Positions 5,650 to 23,701 are shown, counted from the stretch's first letter. The stretch: 64,000 nt of DNA from Escherichia coli (GCF_051903065.1 NZ_CP178439.1), one strand, 5' to 3'. The notes: generated by a model not told the origin, from the letters alone. Numbers and translations: made by a program.

Positions 5650-5828
5650 TTAAAGCCCTTTTTGTAATGTCTTTTGGAGATGGAACCATTATTCCATAGT
5701 CACGCGTTTCACAAACAACCTGATTGCATAAAAAAGGAAAAAAAGTGATTTCCAGTAGAACCAGCAGTACACAAGAAAAGCGCTTTTATAAAAATGTATA
5801 ATTATTAAAACGAAGTAATGAGGTTGAA

Positions 5829-7712: not shown

Positions 7713-8007
7713 CGCGTTAAGCGTTGATTTAGCCGTGAAAAGCGGCCAGCTTAAACAAGCTGTAAGACACCACCGGCAAAATGTCACCTTTGTCGCTGGT
7801 GCACTTCCCATGCCTGAAAAAGGCAATCTGAATTTACCAAACCGTAACTAATTTAGCTCCTCCTGGAGCTATTTTTGTTGCGTACTTCTAATGCCAGATA
7901 GTATAAATCAGGCGGTTCATAGCTTACGGGAGATGAATGACAGGCTTTGCCTTCGTGTTGAAACAAAAAATTGTTTCTTCCTTCTTACTATATATAGGTG
8001 ACCCCAA

Positions 8008-8880
8008 ATGTCTAAAAATAAAGCTCGCAGTAAAGCCCTTCATCAAACCTTTAGTGAAATTATTCCAGAGATGGATAAGGCGCTAAACAAACAGCTCTTA
8101 GAAGTTCTGATGAAATATACAGAACGTGATAATGAACTGATTGTTATTTTGAATGAGGACGGCCCAAATATCATTGAACTTAAGTCTCTTAAGCCTGTGT
8201 CTTTGTTGGCCGAAAAGCTTTCTGCTTATTCAAGCTATTATCATGTGGATGTTGTGGAGCTCGTGGTCAAGAAAATTGATTTCGAAGGAGCTTATAAGCT
8301 TCTTAAAGCTTCCCCAGATGTACCACTTTTTAAAAGCTTAACTGAACTGGATAAATATCTTGTTGAGGAGTTTGAAAAATACGGATTAAATTCATTTCTT
8401 GACGTGGATAATCTGGATTACTCACTTGAAAAAGCCAGTGAACTCAAAAATGAGCAGTTAATAAATTGGGTTTCGGACATCATTTGCAAACGTGAAAAAT
8501 TAACTTTACGTAAGCGTTTTGATGTCGCAGTAAAGGCCCACTACGAAAATGTAGAAAAAATGTATGATACCATTCGTCCGTTAATGAAAAAACTGGGTTT
8601 CCCAGAAGATCTCATGACGCACACCTTTAGTGAGTTAAGCGTTTTTGAAACTAAAGGATGGGACCATGCAATAAAATCGAAAATTGAGACTCTCGCTAAG
8701 CGTGAAACTCAATATTTAGATGATGCGGCTAAAGCAGAGAATCGACGTCTTGTAACAGAGAAGTTGGAGAACTCTTTAGCGATTGCACCAACTAAACCAA
8801 CAAGAAATTGGTTACATATTGCCGGAATTGCCTGTTTGGTAGTCTGCACGTTCATGTATGTAACTAATAAATTTATTTAA
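8008..8880 (+). CDS. Hypothetical protein, C-terminal membrane anchor (ORFan array)
   Basis: 290-aa ORF; hydrophobic C-terminal segment IAGIACLVVCTFMYV; followed by a hairpin element. Confidence 0.55.
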   Translation: MSKNKARSKALHQTFSEIIPEMDKALNKQLLEVLMKYTERDNELIVILNEDGPNIIELKSLKPVSLLAEKLSAYSSYYHVDVVELVVKKIDFEGAYKLLKASPDVPLFKSLTELDKYLVEEFEKYGLNSFLDVDNLDYSLEKASELKNEQLINWVSDIICKREKLTLRKRFDVAVKAHYENVEKMYDTIRPLMKKLGFPEDLMTHTFSELSVFETKGWDHAIKSKIETLAKRETQYLDDAAKAENRRLVTEKLENSLAIAPTKPTRNWLHIAGIACLVVCTFMYVTNKFI

Positions 8881-8884
8881 TCCT

Positions 8885-8916
8885 GTTAAGGGGGAACCCT
8901 AACGGGGCTTCTCTTT
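8885..8916 (+). terminator. Structured GC-run intergenic element E1
   Basis: GTTAAGGGGG-aa-CCCTAAC-GGGGC then T-rich tract, between the stop at 8880 and the start at 8938. Confidence 0.4.
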
Positions 8917-8937
8917 GAACAAATCGAGGAGCGGAAA

Positions 8938-9315
8938 ATGTCATATCTTGAATATATCAATGAAGTAAAAGTGTCCGGGATAGTTATCAGTGCTGTGGAG
9001 AAAAAAATGACTGACCAGAGTATAGGTTTGTTAATAAAGCTCAAAAATAGGATGAAGACAGAAGTTGATGGTGAAATCACTGAGAGAGAATTTTCAGTTC
9101 AAATCAAGGTGTCGCCTGAAATGTATTCAACCTGTTTCACTGGTATAAATCAGGGTGATGAGTTGATGGTCTCCGGTTATATTGTTGTCGATACTATTAT
9201 GATTGAAGGGAGAGAACATCCTCTTGACTACATGAGAGTGGTAGCAACAAGTAAGTTGGCTCACATACCTAAACCTCTAAAAGGTTTTGGACAAAGTAGC
9301 TTTAATCAGATCTGA
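8938..9315 (+). CDS. Hypothetical protein
   Basis: 125-aa ORF, ATG start, same strand as neighbours, followed by a strong hairpin. Confidence 0.5.
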   Translation: MSYLEYINEVKVSGIVISAVEKKMTDQSIGLLIKLKNRMKTEVDGEITEREFSVQIKVSPEMYSTCFTGINQGDELMVSGYIVVDTIMIEGREHPLDYMRVVATSKLAHIPKPLKGFGQSSFNQI

Positions 9316-9322
9316 CATTAAA

Positions 9323-9366
9323 CCCACCCTAAAGGGGAGAAATCCCTTCATGGGATTTCTCCTTTT
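9323..9366 (+). terminator. Structured GC-run intergenic element E2 (rho-independent terminator-like)
   Basis: CCCACCC..GGGG, then an 11-bp stem GGAGAAATCCC / GGGATTTCTCC with loop TTCAT, then TTTT; the CTCC in the 3' arm is complementary to the downstream GGAG ribosome-binding site. Confidence 0.55.
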
Positions 9367-9375
9367 GGAGTCCCC

Positions 9376-10353
9376 ATGAAACAAAAATTTAGGGCTACTG
9401 CAATAAGTAGTAATCAACTTAGTTTTTTTTCTATACTCGATATAGATGAAGATGAAATAACGCAAATAGTTGATTCACCCAAAGAGCATTTAAATGATGC
9501 TTACACGTCCGGATTAAACTTTAAATCAGAAGAAAGTAACATTTCTGAGATAAATTATGATTCTGAAAGGCGTGAAAATCACCTTTATGAAAAATCCAAA
9601 TTACTTAAAAATCAGATTTTGCATACAATTAATTTTGCAACAGAAACAGATTATCTATATACGGTTGAAGAATATAACCCAGATTTGGGTGGTCTGGTAA
9701 TAGAATGGACCCCTGAGGATGTGTATGTTGTTTTTCTATCCGCTATGGAAGAGTCTTTGGAAATCATTAAAGAACTAGTGTTGAGGAGAAAGTTATTCTT
9801 CAAAGATGACAATGGTAATATCACAGTGAATCCACTTTTAGAAGCTGAAACACGGTGGTATATGTCAAAATCATTTGAATACACTTGTTTATCTCATGGA
9901 CTTGATGCATGTGAATTTAGAGCGGAATTAAAATCATGGCTCTATTATCATTCGCATCGTTCGATTAGTGAAAACACGAAATTAGCTGAATGCAGGAATG
10001 ATGATGAAATCATTTTGCATGATTGCAATGACGATATGGGCTGGGACATCTTCTTTGATCAGGATTATTTAATGTCAGAAAAAAAACTGGCTGTTAAATG
10101 GACTGACAGGGAAATTATGGATGTTTACATAAAAGCTTTTAAATCCTCATTAGAGTTGTTTGACGAGCTTGTTTCATGTGATCTGTTAACTAAACGAAAC
10201 GCTTTTGGCAAGTTAGAAATCAATCCAATATTCGAAAATCATTTTGAATGGATCATGTCTGAAGCTTTTGAAATAGTGGGAAATCATCTTGGTTATAATG
10301 TGCCTCAAATCAGGAAACTGATGGCAACTATTTGCCAAATGAATCTCAAATAA
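9376..10353 (+). CDS. Hypothetical protein
   Basis: 325-aa ORF, ATG start 10 nt after element E2. Confidence 0.55.
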   Translation: MKQKFRATAISSNQLSFFSILDIDEDEITQIVDSPKEHLNDAYTSGLNFKSEESNISEINYDSERRENHLYEKSKLLKNQILHTINFATETDYLYTVEEYNPDLGGLVIEWTPEDVYVVFLSAMEESLEIIKELVLRRKLFFKDDNGNITVNPLLEAETRWYMSKSFEYTCLSHGLDACEFRAELKSWLYYHSHRSISENTKLAECRNDDEIILHDCNDDMGWDIFFDQDYLMSEKKLAVKWTDREIMDVYIKAFKSSLELFDELVSCDLLTKRNAFGKLEINPIFENHFEWIMSEAFEIVGNHLGYNVPQIRKLMATICQMNLK

Positions 10354-10410
10354 AATGCCACTGGCAAACATCTGCCAGAGGGCGGTGTTTGCATTTTACC
10401 GGAGTTAAAA

Positions 10411-11469
10411 ATGTCTAATGCCGCTATGAAGTTAAATGAAACATCTTCTGATGCTTATGAAAAATTAGAAGCTCTTCTTTCCCCGGATGTTATAAAGTTA
10501 AAACATTATGTGGATAAAGGTGAGTATCTTTTAGTTCTAGCAAAGGACCTTTTTGGTATTCCAGAAATGGATCCAAAGATGGCTGTGCCTGTTTTCAAAA
10601 CTAAAACCTCGTATCGAGCTCCGCTGAACAAAGACTACATACCAAATCCCCGAATACTTGAACAAGTGGTTAAACTGCTTATCAGTCCGGATATAGATTT
10701 AAGTGTGTGTCTTAAAGGTGAGTCCGGTTCTGGCAAGACTGAAATGGTAATGTACATTAGCCACATGATGAATTGGCCGCTGACAATTAAGCAGATCAAC
10801 AGCAATATTCGAGTTGATGAGCTTGAAGGTGAGCGCAGTCTTAATGGTGGTAATACAGGTTTTGTACACAGCGATTTGGTAACGGGATTTCGTAATGGTC
10901 ACCTCATTCTTCTGGATGAAGTGGACAAAATCGATCCTGATACGGCAGCAAAACTTCACATGCCCATTGAACGTAAGCCCTGGTCACTCAGTGCTAATGG
11001 TGGTGAGGTTATAACTGCTAATGGCTACACGCGATTTATTGGTACTGCAAACACAAACATGAGTGGAGGCGCTCGCCGGTTCGTTTCTTCTCAACGTCAA
11101 GATGCAGCTTTTATAAAGCGGTTCTTGATAGTTGAAATGGAGAAGCCCGACAAAGTTGCTTTAACCAATGTGCTTACTAAACGATATAGCTCTTTGCCTT
11201 TTCAGGTCATTGAGAAGTTCGTAAGAGTAGCGATTGCAGTAAATGACTCTGGTACAGAAGACAGTGTGATGGATATTCGTCAATTAGTAGCTTGGGTTGG
11301 CACGTCGATGACGTTAAAAACCTTTAGTCTTCTTGACACTTTCAAAATAGCTTTTGCTTCTGCTTTACCTTTACATGTGGTCGATCTTGTTCTTCAAGCT
11401 ATAGATCTTTCTCTTGGCGAAGACAAGGATAAATCGCTGGAGTATTTCACAGCAAAAAAGTCGAGTTAG
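10411..11469 (+). CDS. AAA+ ATPase, MoxR/CbbQ/CobS-like
   Basis: Walker A GESGSGKT and Walker B HLILLDEVDK; 352 aa; a vWA-domain partner lies two genes downstream. Confidence 0.7.
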   Translation: MSNAAMKLNETSSDAYEKLEALLSPDVIKLKHYVDKGEYLLVLAKDLFGIPEMDPKMAVPVFKTKTSYRAPLNKDYIPNPRILEQVVKLLISPDIDLSVCLKGESGSGKTEMVMYISHMMNWPLTIKQINSNIRVDELEGERSLNGGNTGFVHSDLVTGFRNGHLILLDEVDKIDPDTAAKLHMPIERKPWSLSANGGEVITANGYTRFIGTANTNMSGGARRFVSSQRQDAAFIKRFLIVEMEKPDKVALTNVLTKRYSSLPFQVIEKFVRVAIAVNDSGTEDSVMDIRQLVAWVGTSMTLKTFSLLDTFKIAFASALPLHVVDLVLQAIDLSLGEDKDKSLEYFTAKKSS

Positions 11470-11780
11470 ATGGGATTTGTTATGAAACCTCTGATATTTG
11501 TATCTCAGAGTTATCCCATCTTGAATTTAGTGCGTTTTTAAGTACGGATGGTGCTGCTACCATTGCTATAGCAAAAAACGGAACTAATTTTACTGGACTT
11601 ATGCAACTGAATAACGACTATTCTTTATTGTTTTATCATGATGGTAAAATAAATATGGAAGGTCTGATTAAACAAATGGAATTAAAAGGTTATATGTATC
11701 AGGGAGCAATGGGCAATGATGATGTTGTTGCTGAGTTTCCCGGTATTCTTTTAATTTCACCAGAGTAGCTTTAATATCAA

Positions 11781-11827
11781 CCCTATCGGGAAATCTTTCC
11801 CGTTGGGGAGGGTTTCCCCTTTTTTTT
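11781..11827 (+). terminator. Structured GC-run intergenic element E3
   Basis: CGGGAAA-tc-TTTCCCG hairpin, GGGGA-GGGTT-TCCCC hairpin, T8 tract; GGGTTTC is complementary to the downstream GAAACCC next to the start codon. Confidence 0.5.
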
Positions 11828-11837
11828 GGAGAAACCC

Positions 11838-12965
11838 ATGACTTTAAATACTTCAATGCTTAACAAAGTATCTGCAAAACAAATCTCTGAGAATTTTGCA
11901 AAATCATATCCAGATTTACTGGAAGGTGCAGTTATAACAAAAATTGAAATAAGTGGCTGTCAAGGATCGCGTCGAACCGATAAAATCGATTTGTCTTATG
12001 ATGGAGATGATATTACGGATCAAAAAAGCGTATCTAAAAGCGAAGTACGCTGGATTGACATAAAAGCCCTTAGCTTCAAAAGTACGATTACCAGCAGAAT
12101 ATCAACTCTTTGCTCACGCTTGTGCATCCGCTATAGCAATATGTGGATTTTACCAGTATCCAGTATGGAAGAGTTTCTGGAAGGGGCCCAAGAGATTGAA
12201 CGAGAGTTTCAGGCAGGTATTCAAAACGTTGTAGACAATTATGAGATGCATATTGAGGCTGAAAAAAATAGAAGCCCAAGAATGTCTTCTTTGATTGATC
12301 AGTTGAAATTAACTAAAGATGATTTCATAAAATCCTTTAGATTTAATATTGCTCACTTTATTCCTTTTACGCCTATTAGCGTTGAAGGTGATGAAACCCA
12401 GGACTACTATCAGGAACAATTGATAACAGATCTGGCAGAAGAAGCAATGAAGGTTTATGAAAAAATTAGCAAAAATAACAATTTGCGCTCAAGTACTATT
12501 GACCGACTGAAGCAAATGCAAAATAAGATCATTAGCTTCATGTTTATACATAAAGAGGCGGCAGTACTTGCAGAAGCTATAAAACACATAATGAATAATT
12601 TACCTAAAGGTGCCATTTCTGAACCTCGCGACGTTGCGGTGTTACAGCAGTGGTTTTATTTCATGAGTGATGCTTCAATGTTAAAGCGTATTATTTCAGG
12701 AGAGCAAAAGGTTACTGACTGGTTGGAATCTATTACCAGATCATTTAATCAAAGCTCACAAACAGAACCGAACGCGCTACAGAACACAGGTATTGAAGCT
12801 ATTTTAGATTCAACAAATGTGTTCCAGGTTGAACCTGTCGTAGAGAACGATATAAATAACAGCACGTTTTCAAACACTGATCCTGTAGCTGAACCTGAGA
12901 AATCAGTTTCGCAACAGGAAGACAATGTTGAAAATGGTTTTGATATCGAGCTCAAAGGCTGGTAA
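11838..12965 (+). CDS. Hypothetical protein
   Basis: ORF in track from 11826 (TTG); ATG at 11838 with GGAGAAACCC upstream preferred; 375 aa. Confidence 0.55.
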   Translation: MTLNTSMLNKVSAKQISENFAKSYPDLLEGAVITKIEISGCQGSRRTDKIDLSYDGDDITDQKSVSKSEVRWIDIKALSFKSTITSRISTLCSRLCIRYSNMWILPVSSMEEFLEGAQEIEREFQAGIQNVVDNYEMHIEAEKNRSPRMSSLIDQLKLTKDDFIKSFRFNIAHFIPFTPISVEGDETQDYYQEQLITDLAEEAMKVYEKISKNNNLRSSTIDRLKQMQNKIISFMFIHKEAAVLAEAIKHIMNNLPKGAISEPRDVAVLQQWFYFMSDASMLKRIISGEQKVTDWLESITRSFNQSSQTEPNALQNTGIEAILDSTNVFQVEPVVENDINNSTFSNTDPVAEPEKSVSQQEDNVENGFDIELKGW

Positions 12966-12984
12966 CTGTTTGCTTTATTAAAAA

Positions 12985-13027
12985 CCCCAGATGGGTACTT
13001 CACCATCTGGGTGAGTACCCCTTTTTT
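12985..13027 (+). terminator. Structured GC-run intergenic element E4, interleaved dyads
   Basis: CCCAGATGG/CCATCTGGG and GGGTACT/AGTACCC dyads interleaved (pseudoknot-like or alternative hairpins), followed by TTTTTT. Confidence 0.5.
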
Positions 13028-13042
13028 ATAAAGAGGTATTCT

Positions 13043-15055
13043 ATGAAATTAGATCTTAAATCATCACCGCGCCATATTAAGCGTTTACAGAATATAGCAA
13101 AAGTCATTAGCGGCTTAGGCGATGTAAGAGTTGTAATAGACGACAATACCAAAGGACCGTATTTTGATCCTGTAAATAAAGTTTGTGTTTTACCAAACGG
13201 CGATTATAGCGATGATGACTTTGTCAGTCTGATTGAAGGTTTTACCTGTCATGAAGCTGGTCATGGTCGCTATACCGACAGCGAGGTTTACAGTGACGCC
13301 TTTAATAGTGTTCTCAAGTCATCTGAAGGGTTTACACGCTTCGATGACGGAATGAATGCAGAGTTTGAGAGCCTCGCTGAGAAACGTAAAGCTTATAGCA
13401 GGGCAAAACGTCTTACCGGGCTTATAAATCTGTTCGATGATGTACAGATGGAAGAGAAGGTTGGTAACGATTATCCGGATGCAAAGCGGCGGCTTGCAGC
13501 CACTTACGCACTGATGGTTAAAGCCGGAAGGATGACTCCTGATATATCTTCTCGTCCGGAAAATCCTGTCCTATTTATTGAGTGGTATCTGCTTAACTCA
13601 TTGCGAGTAAAAGTCCTTCAGCAGGCAGGTCACAAAGAAACACTCGATCCGTTTTTTGACTATGCCCAAAAGATACTTTCTCCAGTAATTTCTGATGTTG
13701 AGGAAATTTTTCATGATGCTCTTGGTTGTGAAAATACTCAGGGCTGTGAATCCCTTGCTCGTAAGACCCTGGCTCTTTTAGAGAGACTGCGGGATGAGGC
13801 AAGGGAACAACAGCAGCAGACAGAGCAGGAGGAGCAGGAGGCATATGATGAATCCGAGACCGAGACCGAGACCGATACCGAATCAGAAGATAAATCGCTT
13901 GAGTCGACTGATAGTCGTGAGGATGATTCTGAGGACGATAGTGAAGGTCAGGCAGATACTTCCGATAACTCTGATCTTGCTCAAGAGGGATGTTCTGAGC
14001 CTTCAGAACTTGCTGAAGATAACGAGGGAAATAATGAACCCACCGGTGGCAATCCCACAGGTGATAACATTATTGAAGACGATACTGATGCGATTAACCC
14101 TTCCGAGAGTGAATCAGATGAAGCCAGTTCGACTAACGTTGAAGATGAAAGTAACTTTTCATCGGCTCAATGGGAGATACTGGCAGATTTGTTGGATGCC
14201 TTTCTTGGCAGTGATGAGGATAGCGAAGATTATCACGATGCTTTGGCTAAAGAGATTGAAGGTATTGCATCAAAAGTATCCGATGACGTGAAAGCCGAAT
14301 TCGGTGCTTCTGAATGGGATATCCCTGATCTCCTTATCGATTTGAATGTTTACAATGAGGCTTTGTCTCTGAGTCATTCAATCGGTAGCGACTTGTCTGT
14401 TTTACAGCAGGTTAAAATGCGTGGCCGAAACAAAACTCATGAGCGTGGAATTACCTTCGATGGAAATCGATTAATTCTGTCACCAATGGGAGTTCGTGAT
14501 GTCTTCAGAGCTCAAAGCGAATCTAAAAATAGAGGGCATGTTGGCCTCGTATTAGTTCGTGATATTTCAGCGTCAATGGCTAATGATGAAAGATATATTC
14601 ATGCCATTAAGTCAGATCTTGCTTTATCGATGGCCGCTGAAAGTTTGTCAAAAATGCATGTCTCCAATATAGTCTTTCCCTTCAAGGAAAGTGAATTTGA
14701 GATTATCAAAACGTTTGATCAAAGCGTTGAGGAATCTCTATCGAAATTCACTCTTGGATGTAAGGGTTATTATACCCCTACGGGATCGGCTTTAATGGCA
14801 GCTGTTGATCTGTTACTTGACAGCCAATTCGATAGGAAAATAATTTTTCTTATAACTGATGGTTATCCGAATAAATCGGAATTTACTATCGGCGAAGTTA
14901 TGGAAAAGGCTAAATGTAATGGAATAGAAATCGTTGGTGTTGGTATTAAGACTGATGAAATAATTGGTTTTGAAACGGACACTTTCGTAACAGTTGATGA
15001 TACTTCTTTATTGTCTATTGAAGTCAGTAAGCTAGTTCATCAAATACTTTCTTAA
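13043..15055 (+). CDS. vWA-domain protein with long acidic linker (CobT/ViaA-like partner of the AAA+ ATPase)
   Basis: C-terminal vWA/MIDAS motifs (VRDISASM, TPTGSA, ITDGYPN); central Asp/Glu-rich low-complexity stretch (ETETETDTESEDKS and onward); 670 aa. Confidence 0.7.
   Translation: MKLDLKSSPRHIKRLQNIAKVISGLGDVRVVIDDNTKGPYFDPVNKVCVLPNGDYSDDDFVSLIEGFTCHEAGHGRYTDSEVYSDAFNSVLKSSEGFTRFDDGMNAEFESLAEKRKAYSRAKRLTGLINLFDDVQMEEKVGNDYPDAKRRLAATYALMVKAGRMTPDISSRPENPVLFIEWYLLNSLRVKVLQQAGHKETLDPFFDYAQKILSPVISDVEEIFHDALGCENTQGCESLARKTLALLERLRDEAREQQQQTEQEEQEAYDESETETETDTESEDKSLESTDSREDDSEDDSEGQADTSDNSDLAQEGCSEPSELAEDNEGNNEPTGGNPTGDNIIEDDTDAINPSESESDEASSTNVEDESNFSSAQWEILADLLDAFLGSDEDSEDYHDALAKEIEGIASKVSDDVKAEFGASEWDIPDLLIDLNVYNEALSLSHSIGSDLSVLQQVKMRGRNKTHERGITFDGNRLILSPMGVRDVFRAQSESKNRGHVGLVLVRDISASMANDERYIHAIKSDLALSMAAESLSKMHVSNIVFPFKESEFEIIKTFDQSVEESLSKFTLGCKGYYTPTGSALMAAVDLLLDSQFDRKIIFLITDGYPNKSEFTIGEVMEKAKCNGIEIVGVGIKTDEIIGFETDTFVTVDDTSLLSIEVSKLVHQILS
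14148..14158. repeat. AAAGTWACTTT palindromic motif copy 4
   Basis: AAAGTAACTTT inside the vWA gene acidic region (E-S-N-F). Confidence 0.6.
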
Positions 15056-15063
15056 TAAACTCT

Positions 15064-15099
15064 ACCCAATCGGGGCAAAAGGCCCCGGTGGGTCTTTTT
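15064..15099 (+). terminator. Intergenic element E5, rho-independent terminator
   Basis: ACCCAATCGGGGC-aaaag-GCCCCGGTGGGT nested hairpin followed by CTTTTT. Confidence 0.6.
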
Positions 15100-15126
15100 G
15101 CTCCATGAAGGAATAAGGAGCAAAAT

Positions 15127-15348
15127 ATGACTCAGATAAAAACTTACCGTGTAGAACATGAAAAAGTCGGTGCGATGCATAAAGTCCGTATTTTCGGACG
15201 TGTTGGTGAAGTTATAAGCAATGATAGCCCTCAGGAAAGAATCTTCCGCGAAGTCACTATAGCGGAGGGTAATAGCCAGCAGGCTGCGTTACTTGTAGAT
15301 AACTACATACAGCGTCTTGAGAATAATGGCTTCACGACTGAAGCATAA
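15127..15348 (+). CDS. Small hypothetical protein (73 aa)
   Basis: ATG start with AAGGAG upstream; flanked by hairpin elements E5 and E6. Confidence 0.5.
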   Translation: MTQIKTYRVEHEKVGAMHKVRIFGRVGEVISNDSPQERIFREVTIAEGNSQQAALLVDNYIQRLENNGFTTEA

Positions 15349-15354
15349 ATGTTG

Positions 15355-15377
15355 AGGGCCCCCGGGCCCTCTTTCTT
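15355..15377 (+). terminator. Intergenic element E6
   Basis: GAGGGCCC-CC-GGGCCCTC perfect hairpin followed by TTTCTT. Confidence 0.55.
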
Positions 15378-15461
15378 AAATTCTGCGTTGTGGGTTTCTC
15401 CCTGTCTTCTGCACCGCAGAAGGCATTGAGAAACTCACAATGCCAGATAAGAGAGATCATC

Positions 15462-16694
15462 ATGACTTATGCATCCCCGGCTCTTCGTCGTAATCCACAG
15501 GAAGTATCTGAACACTTTATTAAACTCGTTCATGCTCGAATTGCTGAAGTGTCTGGCTGGAAGTATATATTCGAAAGAATACCTGCTTTCAAAGACGCTT
15601 GTGCAAAAGCCCCGAGCCAGGTTCCTTGCCCGTTTACTGGCGCAGGGAAATCGAAGTTTCGTTTCCGACAAAAAGACCTTTATACCGGATGTGCGATCCA
15701 TAATGACTTTCCGGTAAATGAGTTTTGCGACGGAATTGATGTTCTGGCGAAATATTATGAATTAAGTAAAACGCAGACTTGCAAAAAGATTCTCTCAGAT
15801 TTTTTCGGGATGGATCTGCATGCTCCGTTAACTGACGCCGACATTGAAAATGAACGACGCTATAAATCAGCAGTTCGTGCCACAGAAACTCTTGACCGAG
15901 AGGAAGTGGCAAAGCGAATGCGAAAACTTGATGTGATGTATCACTATACCGGTGAAATCAAGCCTAATACTCCTGTTGCTTTGTACCTCCGTAATCGTGG
16001 GATCTCCCGCTTACTGAGTCACTTACCAAAGGATTTAGGCTTTAATAACCGGATCTACTATTGGGATAAAGATAAGCAGAAATCGATTATCTATCCGGGA
16101 ATGATTGCGATCTATCGTGACACCCGAGGTCGGCCTCTGACTATTCATAGAACATACGTAGACAAAAATGGTGATAAGGCACCTGTAGAAAATCCAAAGC
16201 TGATGATGAAGCCTCCTGCCGATATGACAGGTGGCTCAATTCAGTTGTTTGACCCTCACTATGATTCAGGTAGTTCGACCTGGACACTGGGAGTGGCTGA
16301 AGGGATCGAGAACGCGCTTTCTGTTGTAGAAGCGACTTCAACACCATGCTGGGCAGCCAGCTCCGCATGGTGCCTTGAAAACGTTACTGTTCCTGATTTT
16401 TTACTGCCTCCGCCGGATGTAAAATCTATAAACTTTTATATCTGGGCGGATAAGGATATTGCTAACTCACAAGGCACTCGTGCCGGTATTGAAGCTGCTC
16501 AGCGACTTCAAAGCCGCATGGTTGAGTTTTTGGCTAAACGATATCCCGCATCAAAGCTGACAATTGAAGTCTTCGAACCAGCACAAGATATTCCTGATGG
16601 GAAAAAGGGTATCGACTGGAACGATGTTCTCCAGTTAACAGGGCAGGATGGATTCCCGATTCACTGGGCTCCTGAATGTCTTAATCAGCTGTAA
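15462..16694 (+). CDS. DNA primase-like protein (zinc-ribbon plus Toprim)
   Basis: N-terminal CPFTGAGKSKFRF..GCAIHNDF resembles the primase-helicase zinc-binding motif; Toprim-like VAEGIENALSV and WADKDIANSQG (DxD); track ORF starts at GTG 15390, ATG 15462 preferred. Confidence 0.5.
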   Translation: MTYASPALRRNPQEVSEHFIKLVHARIAEVSGWKYIFERIPAFKDACAKAPSQVPCPFTGAGKSKFRFRQKDLYTGCAIHNDFPVNEFCDGIDVLAKYYELSKTQTCKKILSDFFGMDLHAPLTDADIENERRYKSAVRATETLDREEVAKRMRKLDVMYHYTGEIKPNTPVALYLRNRGISRLLSHLPKDLGFNNRIYYWDKDKQKSIIYPGMIAIYRDTRGRPLTIHRTYVDKNGDKAPVENPKLMMKPPADMTGGSIQLFDPHYDSGSSTWTLGVAEGIENALSVVEATSTPCWAASSAWCLENVTVPDFLLPPPDVKSINFYIWADKDIANSQGTRAGIEAAQRLQSRMVEFLAKRYPASKLTIEVFEPAQDIPDGKKGIDWNDVLQLTGQDGFPIHWAPECLNQL

Positions 16695-16701
16695 CAACGA
16701 T

Positions 16702-16733
16702 AACTCCCCCGCTTTTTGCGGGGGGGGTTATCT
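16702..16733 (+). terminator. Intergenic element E7
   Basis: CCCCCGC-TTTTT-GCGGGGG hairpin immediately after the stop at 16694. Confidence 0.5.
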
Positions 16734-16773
16734 TATCAATATTATATTTTAAAATTGTATTGATAAGATAACC
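16726..16773. promoter_or_regulatory. 14-bp perfect inverted repeat flanking a 20-bp AT-rich spacer
   Basis: GGTTATCTTATCAA (16726-16739) and TTGATAAGATAACC (16760-16773) around TATTATATTTTAAAATTGTA; sits in a 270-bp gene-free interval. Confidence 0.4.
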
Positions 16774-16904
16774 GCTTTCCTTCGTGATAATTACCTGCCT
16801 TTAAGGTCTTTTCACGGCTGAGATGCTTGCTCAGTTAAATAAATGTGCGGTACTACTGGCTATGGTCGGTTGTATGACATGGTTATTCCATAAACTATTA
16901 AAAC

Positions 16905-16930
16905 CCATAACGGGAGTATTACCGTTATGG
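16905..16930. promoter_or_regulatory. 9-bp inverted repeat, candidate operator upstream of the gene at 16965
   Basis: CCATAACGG-gagtatta-CCGTTATGG, 35 bp upstream of the ATG. Confidence 0.35.
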
Positions 16931-16964
16931 TGATGCTCGTCGTTTTACATCGGAGAGCATTTTA

Positions 16965-17486
16965 ATGAATTTTCAAATTAACGAAGTTTTTAATAAATTT
17001 GCTGCTGTTATAAAATCGCGCATCGTCAATGAACCATCGTCATGCTATTTGCTGCATGATAATGAGATAGATATAACGATTTTGAAACATAGCATATTAG
17101 AAAATGACAGAAACCTGTTGTACGTAGTTCGTCCTTCAGGAACGTGTTTGTTGCGTTGTGACAAATATTTCTATCCGAAATATTATCTTCGTTGCCGTGG
17201 AGATTATAAGTCATTCATATATGTCCATCTTGATCTACATAGTGGTGAAGCTAAAGAAATCACATGGGAGCAAGCAGACGATATGCTGTCTAGTCCAGGA
17301 AAACCCCCATTAAAAGGGAATCTTGGACGATTTGAGTATATAAAAGTTGTGGTTGAGGACCTTCGTATTCGAGGTTACGCTGATTATCTTCCTGCGTATA
17401 ATCTTGATGACCTTCGCCGTTTTGCCTTACAGGACGACCGCCCATCCCTTGTCAGATACATTGACAATGTCATGGCAACGGTCTGA
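16965..17486 (+). CDS. Hypothetical protein
   Basis: 173-aa ORF, ATG start. Confidence 0.5.
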   Translation: MNFQINEVFNKFAAVIKSRIVNEPSSCYLLHDNEIDITILKHSILENDRNLLYVVRPSGTCLLRCDKYFYPKYYLRCRGDYKSFIYVHLDLHSGEAKEITWEQADDMLSSPGKPPLKGNLGRFEYIKVVVEDLRIRGYADYLPAYNLDDLRRFALQDDRPSLVRYIDNVMATV

Positions 17487-17512
17487 TTGATTGCTAATTG
17501 ATTTACATATTT

Positions 17513-17539
17513 TCCCTGATGGCCAACCTGCATCAGGGA
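17513..17539. other. Intergenic hairpin
   Basis: TCCCTGATG-gccaacctg-CATCAGGGA dyad between the genes ending 17486 and starting 17565; no downstream T-tract. Confidence 0.35.
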
Positions 17540-17564
17540 GGCCTCAATAACGAATGGAGGCTGT

Positions 17565-18443
17565 ATGAAGTTAGCTACGGACCTGGTAAAAGCTATTTTG
17601 ATTAGAAATGGCGTTGAACCAGTAAATATAAGCGAATCATCTAAGTTATCTTTGAAACAACCACTGACAGAACTTAAATTCAGTTTATATTTGCGAACTG
17701 AGCATTTATCTCACTTCCTACCCGGTTATGTTTATTCTATAAAAGAATGTCCACTGTCATATGACATCGGGATCGAAATTCAGAAAATCTTCGAAAGTTT
17801 ACATTTGTTAAACGAAGAATTTGAATCCCTCGGTTTTGTTTCTGTATGGATAGAAATGCATCAAAGCATTTTTGAACAAAGTCGGTTTAAGAAAAGTAAC
17901 TTTACTTTTCGGGAGGAAGAGGTCGAGCTTGCTAAAGGGCTTGTTTGTTCTCACAATTCACAAATAAGTAATGCGGCTTATTTCTGGCTTCAGCACTTTG
18001 AGGAGTTTATGATTTATGTTCGTAATAAGCTTATCGACCTCTTTCGAGAGGCCTATGACCTGATCCTTGGAATGCAGCAAGTATTTTTCATTCGGGAAAA
18101 GGAAGAGCTGTTGAAAACTATAAGTTATGGCGATGAGCTGTATGAGGTGAAATTCATGGCGGCTGAGCTTTACTCTATCGAACAGAACTTAAAGTGTTCT
18201 GAATCGATAAGTACAAAATCTCAAGCTTCGGCATATATTAACCGCATCCGTGAGTTTGTGCGTTCGGGGTGGAGGCAGGGCTATATAGTCTGCCATCATA
18301 AGCGAAGTAATCAAATTTCATCATTGTCATTACCGATGTACTTGAAAGATACGTCAGGCCGAAGTGCTCGAAAGCGAGTAAAACGTCTTATATCTTCTAC
18401 AGTTTGTGGTAGAAATAAAGATTTAGGTCTTACAGATTTTTAA
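17565..18443 (+). CDS. Hypothetical protein
   Basis: 292-aa ORF; contains one AAAGTAACTTT motif copy. Confidence 0.55.
   Translation: MKLATDLVKAILIRNGVEPVNISESSKLSLKQPLTELKFSLYLRTEHLSHFLPGYVYSIKECPLSYDIGIEIQKIFESLHLLNEEFESLGFVSVWIEMHQSIFEQSRFKKSNFTFREEEVELAKGLVCSHNSQISNAAYFWLQHFEEFMIYVRNKLIDLFREAYDLILGMQQVFFIREKEELLKTISYGDELYEVKFMAAELYSIEQNLKCSESISTKSQASAYINRIREFVRSGWRQGYIVCHHKRSNQISSLSLPMYLKDTSGRSARKRVKRLISSTVCGRNKDLGLTDF
17893..17903. repeat. AAAGTWACTTT palindromic motif copy 5
   Basis: AAAGTAACTTT inside the ORFan gene at 17565-18443 (K-S-N-F). Confidence 0.6.
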
Positions 18444-18453
18444 TTAAATTATA

Positions 18454-18497
18454 CCCATGTGGGGATCACACCCCATATGGGAGTGATCCCTTTTTTT
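18454..18497 (+). terminator. Structured GC-run intergenic element E8, interleaved dyads
   Basis: CATGTGGGG/CCCCATATG and GGGATCAC/GTGATCCC dyads interleaved, then T7; a third GGATCAC copy overlaps the downstream ribosome-binding site. Confidence 0.5.
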
Positions 18498-18513
18498 ATT
18501 GAGAGAGGATCAC

Positions 18514-19269
18514 ATGAAAATTATCGAAAAAATCATTAATGCCTTTTTGGTTGTTCAACATAAAAAAATACAGGTTAAAAACATTACATTTTTAGACAAT
18601 GGGCAGGGCATGTTCTCTGGTATGTCTTTTGATGCTGATGTTTCACTGGAGTTTATGTATGAATCAGCAAAAGCATATAGTTCTTGTTTCTGTGATATTC
18701 CCTTTCCAGGTTTTGAAGATGCAAATCTGGAGGAAATTACGAAATTTCAATTAGATGCTCTGAAGCAAAGAAAGAATCATTCTTTCTTTGTTAACCATTT
18801 GAGGTTTCCTATAGTTTTAAGGGAAGGGTGCAAAATCGAAAGAGGAGAAGTCTATTCAATTTCGAATTGCACTTATAATAAAGAAAGATTGCAGTATCTT
18901 TTTTCTCAGGATATTTACGGTAAGTTGTATAATTCCTTAGAGAAAGAATTAAGCTCGTTTTTCTCATTTATCAATGTTGAGGTGCACGAGTTGTTAAAAG
19001 ATGCTGTATGCTTTGCATTAAAAATCCTGAATAAGATATCTTTGGATACACCTGAAAGACTTATTAAAGCTTTTAATTATCGTGACTGGTATTGTAGTTA
19101 CGATGTTGAGCTTTTTAGGAAAGGCTTACCTGGTCATATTCTGGAAGAGCTCATTGCTCCAGATATCTTACTTTCAGACCTTAACGGTTGTAGAAAAATA
19201 CTTAGAAATGCAAAACGATTTCTAAATGGACATACACAAACCAATTGTGTTTATATTAAATATGAATGA
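18514..19269 (+). CDS. Hypothetical protein
   Basis: Track ORF from TTG 18499; ATG 18514 with GAGAGAGGA upstream preferred; about 251 aa. Confidence 0.55.
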   Translation: MKIIEKIINAFLVVQHKKIQVKNITFLDNGQGMFSGMSFDADVSLEFMYESAKAYSSCFCDIPFPGFEDANLEEITKFQLDALKQRKNHSFFVNHLRFPIVLREGCKIERGEVYSISNCTYNKERLQYLFSQDIYGKLYNSLEKELSSFFSFINVEVHELLKDAVCFALKILNKISLDTPERLIKAFNYRDWYCSYDVELFRKGLPGHILEELIAPDILLSDLNGCRKILRNAKRFLNGHTQTNCVYIKYE

Positions 19270-19462
19270 TGGTTGGGGCCTGTTGATACCTCACACTCAG
19301 CTAAGTTGATGTCTGACAAAGAAATTAATAACCGAAGTGACTTGAAGAATTTTTCAAAGGTCTTTTTCAAAGAGTGTTTAAGTTCTGGTAAGTCGGAATA
19401 TGAAAACCATCTTAGTGAAAAAGAACATGCGCTTCGCTATAATTATTAATTAAAATTATTTT

Positions 19463-19510
19463 CTCCCATAGGGATTTCTCCCTATGGGAGAAATCCCTCT
19501 ATTAAGAGGG
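19463..19510 (+). terminator. Structured GC-run intergenic element E9
   Basis: TCCCATAGGGA and GGGATTTCTCCC/GGGAGAAATCCC dyads (same arms as E2); CCCTCT-atta-AGAGGG can sequester the downstream ribosome-binding site. Confidence 0.5.
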
Positions 19511-19517
19511 TATTGAA

Positions 19518-20438
19518 ATGAATGCTATACAAAAGTTAGTTGAATCTATTCTTGTTAAAATGGGTTTTGTTGGCGCTGTAGTGGAAAATATATATTTGGA
19601 TTCAAAACCATTTCGGCATATTCGATTTGTGGCTGATATTCCAGTAATATCTTTTCTACCTCATTTGGTGAAATATCTTAAGGGTGCAGACCATCTTTAC
19701 AGTGGTAACGATGATTTGCATCCTCTTTTCATTTATTTTTCCGAAGCGGCTACATTAAAAGCAGGTCCTGTAAATCTCGCGAACTTTCGTTTTGAAGTTT
19801 CTATAGCTTCAACTCATTTACGACTGGTCTCAGAGCAGCCTGATTTGCTTTTCAAAGGATTTAACCGGGATAATCTAGAATACGTTTATTACCGCTCAGA
19901 TTTGGCCTCTAAGGATCTTATACTAGGCCTTGTTGAACACGGTTCTCCTTTCATAAAACATCTACATGGACTTATACAAAAGCGAATTTTAAACGAGTTC
20001 TCTCTGATTTTTTCTGTTCTTGAAAAGATTTTAGAAAGCGCGAAGCCACAAATTCTTGCTTGCTTCCATAGTGTTGATTATGAAATGAACGTAAAAATAA
20101 TAGCCGAAGCTATACCTGAAACTGTATCTAATCAGATAGTCACATCTGATTATATAGTTAATTCTATATCAGATGCGGACAAGTTTATAAATCATGTTCG
20201 TCGCTATTTAGCAGGCAGGGTAATGAAGAGGCGGATATACGCTGAATTAGATGTTTGTGAAGAAACATCAAGTATTTCACTAGTGAACTTAGGATGCTTT
20301 ACGTCTCCTCTGCTCGTTACGGAATATCAAATGTTTAAGCCACACTCTTCAGGGTTATATCGAAAAGCTATAAACAACTCCTTAAAACAGTTCAAACCAG
20401 AAATGCATGTACCTTCTGAAGAACTCTTTTATAATTAA
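19518..20438 (+). CDS. Hypothetical protein
   Basis: 306-aa ORF, ATG start. Confidence 0.55.
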   Translation: MNAIQKLVESILVKMGFVGAVVENIYLDSKPFRHIRFVADIPVISFLPHLVKYLKGADHLYSGNDDLHPLFIYFSEAATLKAGPVNLANFRFEVSIASTHLRLVSEQPDLLFKGFNRDNLEYVYYRSDLASKDLILGLVEHGSPFIKHLHGLIQKRILNEFSLIFSVLEKILESAKPQILACFHSVDYEMNVKIIAEAIPETVSNQIVTSDYIVNSISDADKFINHVRRYLAGRVMKRRIYAELDVCEETSSISLVNLGCFTSPLLVTEYQMFKPHSSGLYRKAINNSLKQFKPEMHVPSEELFYN

Positions 20439-20442
20439 TCTA

Positions 20443-20486
20443 ACCCATCCGGGAACCTGCTTCCCGGTGGGAAGCACTTCCTTTTT
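20443..20486 (+). terminator. Structured GC-run intergenic element E10
   Basis: CCGGGAA/TTCCCGG and GGAAG-cac-TTCC dyads followed by TTTTT; GAGGTAGTGTAAATG ribosome-binding context downstream. Confidence 0.5.
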
Positions 20487-20504
20487 AGTCATGAGGTAGT
20501 GTAA

Positions 20505-21368
20505 ATGTTTAAAGAATCTGACCACGTGGAATTTGTTAGTGCCTTTCTTTATCAAAATTTAGGCCTTAATGTTTCCGCTGACGATATAACCGTTCAATTA
20601 TCTGATACTTCGTTCGACAAAGTAACCTTTGATTACGATGTAGATATCGATAATTTAAATTGTATGTTGGATCTCTACATATCTGAGCTAATAAAGCACA
20701 ACGCATCTTACTCCGATTCTATTCTTTTGAAACAAAAAATAATTTATTTTCTTGGAGTATTTAAGAATTTCGGATTTTTTACGTTTGATATTCGCGGATA
20801 TAGTAATACTTTAAGCCCAGTTAAAGTTATTGATATTGTTTCAATGATTATTAATGACTGTGAAGAGTTATCTAAAGCTAATTCTTCTACTGATGCTATA
20901 AGAAATCTTTATCTCGATAAAATGAAGGTGGATGGGAAAGTGTTAGTTGCGAAATTTGCACTTAAACAGTTTTTTCATTCCGACTTTGGTGACTTTATCT
21001 CATTTGTCGAGAAAAGAATTACAGATTGTCTTAATGAAACTTTAAGGATTATCAAAGCTGTTGAACATGGCTTTGTACGTGTAGGGCAGCATAAGATTAA
21101 TCGCCGTATTAATGATGACTTAAAGTTATGCATTGATTTCAATACTGATGATTATCCGGCAAATATGCCAGATATATATATTAAGTTTAACGATACATTT
21201 GATGGGAACGGGGCGTTATATTGTGACAATGATGCCCTCATATCCCTCTATACCGATGTTGCTTCAATTATCAATGTGCCGGTGATGATGGAAGTAAGAT
21301 TGATCAATAAAAGAGGGCGTGTTGTCTGTGATTCTTCGCATTCAACTTACGTATCTCGGCTTTGTTGA
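20505..21368 (+). pseudogene. Hypothetical protein, paralog A; 3' end truncated by IS903
   Basis: Clear paralog of the gene at 22681-23637 (KVDGKVLVAKFALKQFF vs QVDGQVMIARFALQQFW). The ORF runs into the IS903 left end; removing the IS restores a C-terminus similar to the paralog. Confidence 0.6.
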
Positions 21369-22414
21369 ATAAATCGAACTTTTGCTGAGTTGAAGGATCA
21401 GATCACGTATCTTCCCGACAACGCAGACCGTTCCGTGGCAAAGCAAAAGTTCAAAATCACCAACTGGCCCACCTACAATAAAGCCCTCATCAACCGTGGC
21501 TCCATAACTTTCTGGCTGGATGATGAAGCTATTCAGGCCTGGTATGAGTCAGCAACACCTTCTTCACGAGGCAGACCTCAGCGCTATTCTGACCTTGCCA
21601 TCACGACTGTGCTGGTCATTAAACGCGTATTCAGGCTGACCCTGCGCGCTGCGCAGGGCTTTATTGATTCCATTTTTTCTCTGATGAACGTTCCGCTACG
21701 CTGCCCGGATTACAGCTGTGTCAGCAGGCGGGCAAAGTCGGTTAATGTCAGTTTCAAAACGCCCACCCGGGGTGAAATCGCACACCTGGTAATTGATTCC
21801 ACCGGGCTGAAGGTCTTCGGTGAAGGCGAGTGGAAAGTCAAAAAGCATGGCCAGGAACGCCGCCGTATCTGGCGTAAGCTGCATCTCGCCGTTGACAGTA
21901 AAACACATGAAATCATCTGCGCTGACCTGTCGCTGAACAACGTTACGGACTCAGAGGCCTTCCCCGGGTTAATCCGGCAAACCCACCGGAAAATCAGGTC
22001 AGCCGCCGCCGATGGCGCTTACGATACCCGGCTATGTCACGATGAACTGCGGCGTAAGAAAATCAGCGCGCTTATCCCTCCCCGAAAAGGTGCGGGTTAC
22101 TGGCCCGGTGAATATGCAGACCGTAACCGTGCAGTGGCTAATCAGCGAATGACCGGGAGTAATGCGCGGTGGAAATGGACAACAGATTACAACCGTCGCT
22201 CGATAGCGGAAACGGCGATGTACCGGGTAAAACAGCTGTTCGGGGGTTCACTGACACTGCGTGACTACGATGGTCAGGTTGCAGAGGCTATGGCCCTGGT
22301 ACGAGCGCTGAACAAAATGACGAAAGCAGGTATGCCTGAAAGCGTGCGTATTGCCTGAAAACACAACCCGCTACGGGGGAGACTTACCCGAAATCTGATT
22401 TATTCAACAAAGCC
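21358..22414 (+). mobile_element. IS903 (IS5 family), complete, 1057 bp
   Basis: 18-bp terminal inverted repeats GGCTTTGTTGAATAAATC at both ends; 9-bp direct target duplication ACGTATCTC at 21349-21357 and 22415-22423. Confidence 0.9.
21435..22358 (+). CDS. IS903 transposase
   Basis: 307-aa ORF from GTG 21435 (track extends upstream to TTG 21390); spans nearly the whole element between the inverted repeats; matches my recollection of the IS903 transposase. Confidence 0.85.
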   Translation: MAKQKFKITNWPTYNKALINRGSITFWLDDEAIQAWYESATPSSRGRPQRYSDLAITTVLVIKRVFRLTLRAAQGFIDSIFSLMNVPLRCPDYSCVSRRAKSVNVSFKTPTRGEIAHLVIDSTGLKVFGEGEWKVKKHGQERRRIWRKLHLAVDSKTHEIICADLSLNNVTDSEAFPGLIRQTHRKIRSAAADGAYDTRLCHDELRRKKISALIPPRKGAGYWPGEYADRNRAVANQRMTGSNARWKWTTDYNRRSIAETAMYRVKQLFGGSLTLRDYDGQVAEAMALVRALNKMTKAGMPESVRIA

Positions 22415-22529
22415 ACGTATCTCTCGAAAGTAATGACCGATACAGAGTAACTGATCGCACATTACTAATAACTGAAGCTTTTGACGATTTTCGTAACGCG
22501 TCTCAATGATCCTTTTGCTTCAGTCCAAA

Positions 22530-22540
22530 AAAGTAACTTT
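22530..22540. repeat. AAAGTWACTTT palindromic motif copy 6
   Basis: AAAGTAACTTT, intergenic; embedded between CTTCAGTCCAA and TTGGCTGAAG inverted repeats. Confidence 0.6.
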
Positions 22541-22620
22541 GGTTGGCTGAAGACACTTGTCTATGACAATGTAAAATCTGTCGCTGGCATCTTCTTTTAG
22601 CTTAACCAAATTTTTATCTA

Positions 22621-22662
22621 ACCCAGTGGGGAAGTCGCTTCCCTTCTGGGGCACTTCCTCTC
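22621..22662 (+). terminator. Structured GC-run intergenic element E11
   Basis: CCCAGTGGGGAAG-tcg-CTTCCC..GGGG runs ahead of the GAGGTAGTGTATATG start context, as upstream of paralog A. Confidence 0.4.
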
Positions 22663-22680
22663 AAATTCGAGGTAGTGTAT

Positions 22681-23676: not shown

Positions 23677-23701
23677 GGCACGGTTTCCGTGCCTTTTTTT
23701 T
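23677..23701 (+). terminator. Rho-independent terminator
   Basis: GGCACGG-ttt-CCGTGCC followed by T8. Confidence 0.7.

Follow-up and report, generated by a model that had tools for sequence, protein, structure and literature searches.

Conserved three-helix elements, putative cis-acting mRNA switches, between the genes of a co-directional array on IncHI plasmids

Why does nearly every gap between the genes of a co-directional plasmid array hold alternating runs of C and G, and what would such runs do there? We asked this for a stretch of 64,000 nucleotides from Escherichia coli (GCF_051903065.1, NZ_CP178439.1), referred to as the window, which is the backbone of an IncHI2 resistance plasmid: in a database comparison bases 8000-21000 were 100% identical to >1,000 IncHI2 plasmids, and the array is carried by >1,000 sequenced plasmids at an identity of at least 99%. 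Plasmids of the types IncHI1, IncHI2 and IncHI1B rank among the major carriers of multidrug resistance, mcr-1 and NDM included. A preliminary description of the window had placed GC-run elements between nearly all neighbouring same-strand genes of the array, which was borne out by reading the sequence. The pattern CCC-N(1-7)-GGG-N(2-14)-CCC-N(1-7)-GGG occurred at 7 sites in the window, all between 9.3 and 22.7 kb, compared to 0.34 ± 0.59 sites in dinucleotide shuffles of the window. Twelve consecutive elements were found on the + strand between 8.9 and 22.7 kb, each running up to a start codon. By computation, these elements have three specific and mutually exclusive helices, two of them (H1 and H2) of near-equal energy, and their ground state masks a Shine-Dalgarno (SD) sequence. 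They form a real, conserved and previously undescribed family, which our modelling suggests to be cis-acting mRNA switches. Our reading, to which we give a probability of about one half, is that each element would act as an intercistronic serial attenuator and translation gate, a three-helix switch in the sense mRNA.

Each element is ~60 nt long (55-65 nt) and contains six alternating C/G blocks (C1, G2, C3, G4, C5 and G6), of which G6 is the SD. Three competing helices are built from these blocks. H1 is a hairpin of C1:G4 plus G2:C3 that starts 0-26 nt past the upstream stop codon, H3 is the C5:G6 (anti-SD:SD) hairpin, in which the ribosome-binding site of the following gene is masked, and H2 is a register-shifted hairpin that pairs G2 with C5, with C3:G4 at its tip, and reuses the anti-SD strand. 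Segment b (the 3' part of the H1 5' arm plus the loop) is complementary to segment d, which lies just after H1 and is also the anti-SD strand of H3, and b resembles the SD region (segment e). The alternation of the runs is explained by pairing: given a G-rich SD, the anti-SD must be C-rich, the decoy that pairs with it must again be G-rich, and the chain continues in this way as far as block 1. The 30-55 bp originally given for the elements was too short, since they reach the next start codon and take in its SD. The interleaved dyads quoted for 12985-13027 and 18454-18497 were exact, and the proposal of mutually exclusive hairpins instead of simple terminators was supported, with H1 and H2 as near-isoenergetic alternatives. 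The arms common to 9336-9362 and 19470-19496 (GGGAGAAATCCC / GGGATTTCTCC) are real, in swapped order. An H-type pseudoknot was rejected on linker geometry, as a linker of 0-1 nt would need to cross an 11-bp stem (a geometric reading, not a computed one).

A generic scanner for a tandem hairpin ahead of a start codon proved too unspecific at internal start codons, and a covariance model (R1) built from an alignment of 28 copies was used instead. In the window, R1 matched eleven elements at E ≤ 0.03 and the twelfth (g4) at E = 0.64, and on a complete 237.7-kb IncHI2 plasmid (L011-L015) it gave 11 matches, all on the + strand and all inside the array. Nine of the eleven intervals first listed belong to the family; the other two, 15355-15377 and 16702-16733, are plain single hairpins with no model match, and three members had been overlooked (10354-10413, which is weak, 16901-16967 and 17511-17567). 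The minimum free energy (MFE) fold consists of two adjacent hairpins (H1 and H3, with a gap of 0-2 nt) at 11 of the 12 IncHI2 junctions, and H3 ends 0-11 nt ahead of the ATG. The twelve elements are as follows.

8882-8940, + strand: g2, tandem hairpins with H1 8882-8906, H3 8907-8932 and ATG 8938; MFE -24.0; H2 complementarity weak; R1 match 8878-8940, E = 4.8e-6.
9322-9378, + strand: g3, a topological variant with an H2-type hairpin at 9332-9366 followed by TTTT, ATG 9376; MFE -24.4; R1 match 9324-9378, E = 0.004, outside the training set.
10357-10413, + strand: g4, a weak member with H1 10357-10383 and ATG 10411; R1 match 10354-10413 at E = 0.64 only.
11781-11840, + strand: g6, H1 11781-11808, H2 11788-11818 followed by 8 T, H3 11810-11837, ATG 11838; R1 E = 3.7e-10.
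12986-13045, + strand: g7, H1 12986-13011, H2 12993-13020 followed by a T-tract, H3 13013-13041, ATG 13043; R1 E = 1.2e-8.
15064-15129, + strand: g8, H1 15064-15093, H2 15072-15104 without a T-tract, H3 15096-15125, ATG 15127; R1 E = 3.6e-7.
16905-16967, + strand: g10, H1 16905-16930, H2 16911-16942, H3 16932-16961, ATG 16965; R1 match 16901-16967, E = 2.3e-4, outside the training set, with orthologues also matched in L002 and L003.
17513-17567, + strand: g11, H1 17513-17539, H2 17521-17543, H3 17540-17562, ATG 17565; R1 match 17511-17567, E = 0.03.
18454-18516, + strand: g12, the clearest case, H1 18454-18481, H2 18461-18491 followed by 7 T, H3 18483-18513, ATG 18514; R1 E = 9e-12.
19460-19520, + strand: g13, H1 19460-19493, H2 19470-19498, H3 19495-19510, ATG 19518; R1 E = 1.4e-7.
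20444-20507, + strand: g14, H1 20444-20471, H2 20451-20482 followed by a T-tract, H3 20474-20502, ATG 20505; R1 E = 2.3e-9.
22622-22683, + strand: g15, H1 22622-22650, H2 22628-22660, H3 22651-22678, ATG 22681; R1 E = 2.3e-8.

In g3, block 1 (ACCC, 9326-9329) pairs straight with the SD (9367-9371), and the orthologue in the IncHI1 prototype (L003) folds as H1+H3. In g4, an alternative GCAAACA/TGTTTGC hairpin lies within 10369-10393, and the sequence is nearly invariant among orthologues.

The pairing behind H2 and H3 was tested in 50 elements, using windows fixed by the model columns and not taken from folds. For H2 (b with d, decoy with anti-SD), cognate strands paired at -11.8 kcal/mol compared to -6.3 kcal/mol for non-cognate strands, and 42 of the 50 were in the best 10%. 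For H3 (d with e, anti-SD with SD), the values were -12.05 and -5.55 kcal/mol (44/50 in the best 10%), and for the control pair b with e they were -3.9 and -2.9 kcal/mol (12/50). An identical 6-mer was common to b and e in 15 of the 50 elements, compared to 3% of non-cognate pairs. Over 45 distinct elements the mean energies of H1 and H2 were -15.7 and -16.4 kcal/mol, with a gap of at most 4 kcal/mol in 38, while H2 formed with a shuffled anti-SD strand d reached a mean of only -10.1 kcal/mol. In the window, H2 had -11 to -22 kcal/mol in eleven of the twelve elements and H3 had -8 to -14 kcal/mol; in g7, H1 (-16.7 kcal/mol) and H2 (-17.1 kcal/mol) were nearly equal. Furthermore, when the nascent RNA ended at d and 5 nt of block 1 were masked, H2 became the MFE structure in ten of eleven IncHI2 elements; g4 formed a short, weak alternative hairpin only, and in g6 and g10 H2 was the MFE structure even unmasked.

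The regions from -70 to +15 of the twelve array starts folded at -29.5 kcal/mol, compared to -14.1 ± 5.4 kcal/mol for 77 other plasmid genes (Mann-Whitney p = 7e-8). Masking of the SD by H3 recalls the ROSE and fourU elements, and IncHI transfer is thermoregulated, with many non-tra genes of R27 expressed more highly at 37 °C (PMC7366339); the elements could on this account act as RNA thermometers, linked to the temperature sensitivity of these plasmids. We consider this very improbable, as the predicted SD accessibility was flat (mean 0.25 to 0.30 over 20-50 °C) and H3, at its predicted energy, is too stable to melt in that range.

In which nucleic acid do the elements act? The preliminary description had raised a DNA-level role in a conjugative leading region, and such a function could take the form of single-strand promoters or primase sites, protein-binding sites or recombination hotspots. 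The hairpins do fold as DNA too, at -9 to -21 kcal/mol on either strand, and a primase gene lies inside the array. However, on the complete plasmid the array occupies 39-54 kb, ~115 kb from mobI and the MobH relaxase gene (167.9-172.3 kb); the 55-65-nt elements have no -35/-10 mimic; and one arm is always the SD of a sense gene, at a constant spacing from the ATG. In 41 of 51 elements, folding was also more stable for the sense RNA than for its complement (-28.4 vs -25.4 kcal/mol), with 78 G.U pairs in use, and both this sense-specific pairing and the energy asymmetry vanished with DNA parameters (sums of -340 vs -302 for RNA and -175 vs -169 for DNA). A function at the DNA level is thus extremely unlikely, and the leading-region proposal was not supported.

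The same architecture in the same gaps was found in three further lineages: the IncHI1 prototype (L003), a third lineage (L002, L005 and L009) and the IncHI1B/pNDM-MAR lineage (L004 and L006-L008), in which the DUF3150 protein is 38-40% identical and the DNA is no longer alignable. Lack of conservation in related plasmids had been named beforehand as a possible refutation, and the elements are conserved. The tandem H1+H3 fold reappeared when orthologues from the three other IncHI lineages were folded independently. Mean column identity among elements was 53%, with only the C/G blocks conserved. Among 51 distinct sequences, H1 covariation scored 0.330 compared to 0.158 in shuffles (0 of 500 shuffles reached it), and slid registers of H1 all scored lower. 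The outer three C-G pairs (CCC:GGG) and the inner G-C clamp (GGG:CCC) of H1 were sequence-conserved in 42-49 of 51, the middle four pairs varied freely (4-6 pair types), and the loops were not conserved. In g12, three segments changed together from IncHI2 to L002/L003: decoy b from GGGATCAC to GGGATTAC, anti-SD d from GTGATCCC to GTAATCCC and SD region e from GGATCAC to GGATTAC. A search of the window against Rfam gave 0 matches at gathering thresholds, with only far-sub-threshold chance matches in E-value mode, and no description of the elements was found in the literature on IncHI, R27, R478, stem-loops, intergenic elements, DUF3150 or translational coupling. A scan of genome contigs with DUF3150 added only 2 further loci, both inside known lineages.

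How would such an element work? In the ground state, H1 and H3 would coexist and the SD of the next gene would be masked; in the alternative state, H2 would take the anti-SD strand and leave the SD free, and with the U-tract present at roughly half of the junctions it would look like an intrinsic terminator. H1 is transcribed first, and H3 would lock it after the SD has emerged, so that H2 would matter only kinetically or with block 1 hidden. Since H1 and H2 are near-isoenergetic and H1 is made first, the choice would be kinetic, made on the nascent RNA before the SD leaves the polymerase, and anything that hides block C1 would tip the RNA into H2. The most economical candidate for this input is the presence or absence of a ribosome that completes the upstream cistron, because at most junctions 0-12 nt separate block 1 from the stop codon. 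In the presence of such a ribosome, H2 would free the SD on that transcript and, given a U-tract, terminate some polymerases. If the upstream cistron is not being translated, the RNA would adopt H1+H3, and the cistron that follows would remain silent. Each junction would thus grant or withhold the licence to translate the next cistron. Attenuation-type control, one of the classes proposed at first, appears to be the right class of reading.

Several points weigh against this switch. Its support is entirely computational. Naive alignment of orthologues gave 43 changed pairs kept and 46 broken, which is not clean covariation; we attribute the mixed counts to register shifts. At equilibrium the closed state (H1+H3) lies ~8-14 kcal/mol below H2, and occluding 6-15 nt past the stop codon left the SD shut in the full-length RNA. 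The model therefore needs kinetic trapping; an equilibrium version of ribosome occlusion was rejected as sufficient, and only the nascent-RNA version works. Only 1-3 T follow H2 at g2, g8, g11, g13 and g15, and the T-tract of g7 has decayed in IncHI1, where the helices are kept. In addition, the distance from stop codon to H1 is variable (mostly 0-12 nt, 20 nt at g7 and 24-26 nt at g11), and g10 and g15, the latter >100 nt past the upstream stop codon, have no nearby upstream cistron, so a terminating ribosome cannot be the input everywhere.

These weaknesses of the ribosome as input make a trans-acting factor on H1 or block 1 a serious rival. The same switch would then be flipped by an RNA-binding protein or small RNA of plasmid or host that recognises the CCC(A)...(U)GGG clamp of H1 or the single-stranded block 1, and one factor would open or close all twelve junctions together, like BglG/SacY on a RAT hairpin over a terminator. 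The near-isoenergetic H1 and H2 fit a protein-tunable platform, the clamp pairs of H1 are the conserved ones while its middle pairs are free, g10 and g15 need an input other than a ribosome, and many array proteins are without a known family. We still regard this as unlikely: a chain of alternative pairings that starts from the G-rich SD already accounts for the conserved C/G orientation, scans with PHROGs, PADLOC and NCBIfam found no RNA-binding domain in any array protein, and the H1 loops are not conserved. As a separate candidate, CsrA sites were rejected, there being no GGA in the H1 loops.

Could the elements simply be terminators? The preliminary description had leaned towards a terminator after almost every gene and hence monocistronic units; ordinary Rho-independent terminators would yield monocistronic or nested transcripts. 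At g6, g7, g10, g12 and g14, an H2 of -15 to -22 kcal/mol is followed by 5-8 T. The T count in the 8 nt after H2 was at least 5 at these junctions and at g4 (where the hairpin is weak), and 4 at g3, and the T-tract is kept among orthologues at g6, g12 and g14. A consensus scan called 11788-11818 (H2 of g6) and 20458-20476 terminator-like, and terminator-like sites were enriched overall (30 found vs 14 expected). However, a T-tract at the end, said to be usual, is present at about half of the junctions, the five with 1-3 T lack it, and its decay in the g7 orthologues left the helices in place. A plain terminator would need neither H1 nor an SD-masking H3 nor an SD-matched decoy, and H1, made first, competes with H2. 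The default fold (H1+H3) is an anti-terminator plus a masked ribosome-binding site. The gaps of 57-83 nt are too short to hold a promoter, and promoter-like sites showed no enrichment (37 found, 48 expected); the only internal promoters called were 19415-19443 and 22550-22577, and no promoter-like hexamer pairs were called inside elements. AT-rich -10-like hexamers ahead of most H1s are expected because TAA stop codons adjoin in 38%-GC DNA. Ordinary terminators are thus quite unlikely, and the claim of monocistronic units was not supported. Plain terminator-like hairpins stand at 16704-16726 and 23677-23693, and the array resembles two or three units of transcription that contain internal attenuators, partial at most, rather than a string of monocistronic genes. 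A phage-type promoter at 9316-9345 was considered separately for its likeness to the T3 core (CCC.C.CTAAAGGGGAGA); it is common to no other element and was dropped.

A further alternative is that the elements are sites of RNA processing or stability, cut by RNase E (in the AU-rich H3 loop or 5' of H1) or by RNase III (at stacked H1/H3), so that a polycistronic RNA would be cut into stable units and the SD freed, as at the RNase III sites of the T7 early region. The H3 loops are 6-14 nt long and A/U-rich, the H1 flanks are AU-rich, and stacking across the 0-2-nt gap between H1 and H3 could give ~20 bp. Processing, together with partial termination, has been reported for the neighbouring AN operon of R27 (PMC7366339). 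[quoted passage not shown] Nevertheless, H1 would still beat H2 after cleavage, so processing leaves the complementarity of decoy and anti-SD and the energy match of H1 and H2 unexplained, and no helix is continuous over 20 bp. We judge this account to be rather improbable, at about the level of ordinary terminators.

The proposed switch shares parts with several known systems. Like the trp, his and pyrBI attenuators, the elements have overlapping, exclusive antiterminator and terminator hairpins, and they would share with them a choice on the nascent RNA and a 5'-most segment that a ribosome can mask. In contrast to these, they have no dedicated leader peptide or regulatory codons, the 'leader' being the full-length upstream gene, they add an SD-masking third helix, and they occur at 12 successive junctions inside operons and not once at the 5' end. 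A leader peptide was considered and rejected; the sole mini open reading frame (ORF) seen (ATG 18457, in H1 of g12, 9 codons) is missing from the L002 and L003 orthologues. Coupling by RNA unfolding, as in E. coli rpmI-rplT and the MS2 coat-lysis/replicase system (reviewed in PMC12548453), likewise silences a downstream ribosome-binding site by pairing, and the stop-to-start spacing of +52 nt in rpmI-rplT is similar to the 57-83 nt of the IncHI elements. As in those systems, dependence on upstream translation is expected. In the established examples, the inhibitory strand is part of the upstream ORF, where it is unwound directly, whereas in the IncHI elements the anti-SD sits in the intergenic gap, 25-50 nt past the stop codon and outside the reach of the ribosome; a relay through H1 and H2 (the SD decoy) would therefore be needed. 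The four-segment logic, in which a freed upstream segment re-pairs the anti-SD and exposes the SD, is that of ermC/cat translational attenuation, but the elements lack a stalling peptide or drug sensor and are intercistronic and serial. BglG/SacY/LicT antitermination at RAT also relies on a hairpin that overlaps a terminator and is its competitor, the energies differing only marginally, but here there is no RAT consensus or known binding protein, and an SD-masking helix is added. Lastly, the RNase III sites of the T7 early region and the REP/BIME palindromes are also structured punctuation, in the T7 case and here of a co-directional array. The T7 sites are single irregular hairpins defined by cleavage and REPs are a dispersed sequence family, whereas the IncHI elements are alike in architecture and C/G blocks, not in sequence, hold the SD and occur in one 13-kb array only. 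On the model, what would be new relative to these known parts is the lack of a leader peptide, the decoy relay to an outlying anti-SD and the twelvefold serial repetition.

We tentatively propose that the twelve switches together might form a serial translational relay, unlocked only on nascent transcripts on which the preceding cistron is under translation, or by one dedicated factor, an extension that we hold to be clearly less probable than the single switch. If so, pervasive or out-of-frame transcripts of this AT-rich, H-NS-prone DNA would stay untranslated and expression along the 15-kb array would be all-or-none. Such a relay would be a previously undescribed operon-wide control made of a decoy for the SD, the anti-SD strand and a hairpin that acts as a lock. 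A 60-nt module (antiterminator, terminator-like hairpin and SD mask) has been maintained at a dozen junctions despite protein divergence to 38-40% identity, and its retention argues that a conserved backbone block is under strong selection to have its expression tightly gated. The genes of this block, namely those for the CobS-like ATPase, the DUF3150 protein, the CobT-like VWA protein, the primase and a paralogous group of no known family, are unannotated despite the spread of the carrier plasmids. With twelve natural variants of one bistable design, each array would be a test bed for co-transcriptional folding, ribosome-RNA polymerase coupling and distant translational coupling, and the module would also serve as a compact part for synthetic operons.

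The array lies directly 3' of trhU-trhN-trhI at the end of Tra2 (annotation of L001), and its genes from 8.0 to 23.6 kb are all on the + strand in DNA of 38% GC. They comprise three genes of no known family, those for a CobS-like AAA ATPase, a small ORF, DUF3150, a CobT-like VWA protein, a 73-amino-acid ORF and a toprim primase, and six more genes of no known family, five of which are paralogues. The latter are g11-g15 (17565-23637), five consecutive paralogues of ~290-320 amino acids with no family match in PHROGs, PADLOC or NCBIfam. Each has its own diverged copy of the switch upstream, and gene and element thus appear to have been duplicated together. An IS903-type insertion (21358-22414, 1057 bp), flanked by a 9-bp target duplication ACGTATCTC at 21349-21357 and 22415-22423, splits one ~300-amino-acid paralogue that is intact in L001 and L010. 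The g12 gene (18514-19449) is broken in this lineage into ORFs 18514-19269 and 19273-19449, while its counterpart in pEC-IMP is one 936-nt gene (L010, 18669-19604). This break accounts for the apparent 250-nt gap ahead of the element at 19460, and g13 in fact comes after the ancestral g12 stop codon (19447-19449).

In Aeromonas media pAeme5 (L016), a syntenic helicase-toprim-AAA-DUF3150-VWA array has another repeated intergenic motif, made up of 2-4 tandem mini-hairpins (ATCC-TTCG-GGAT / GCC-TTCG-GGC) at 5614-5702, 7976-8099, 13152-13217 and 13743-13883, and R1 had no match in that array. Structured intercistronic punctuation may be a recurring trait of this gene block. In the gap ahead of the AAA ATPase gene, GGGCGGTGTTTGC (10380-10393) is invariant across three lineages; it is loosely like the ops/RfaH recruitment motif GGCGGTAG, with 6 of 8 core bases, which may be chance.

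Three further hairpins on the + strand lie outside the family.

15354-15371, + strand: a simple conserved hairpin GAGGGCCCCCGGGCCCTC 3' of the 73-amino-acid gene, with no R1 match.
16704-16726, + strand: a G/C hairpin CTCCCCCGC..GCGGGGGGG that closes the first gene block and is followed by a 270-nt gap, with no R1 match; likely a true terminator.
23677-23701, + strand: a canonical intrinsic terminator, GGCACGG-TTT-CCGTGCC (23677-23693) followed by 8 T, that closes the array.

Directly 3' of the 16704-16726 hairpin, inside the 270-nt gap between the gene blocks, an inverted repeat with perfect arms of 16 bp (GGTTATCTTATCAATA / TATTGATAAGATAACC) around a 16-nt spacer of A and T only spans 16726-16773 and looks like an operator or origin. 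The toprim primase gene is preceded at 15380-15450 by a hairpin that is very long and nearly perfect, in a gap with a folding energy of -62 kcal/mol. The hairpin is conserved in IncHI1 and L002, and as an 83-nt piece (15373-15455) it recurs, unannotated and at ~83% identity, in hundreds of large Klebsiella plasmids. It differs in kind from the switches and is possibly a primase or single-strand initiation site, or a leader of the primase gene.

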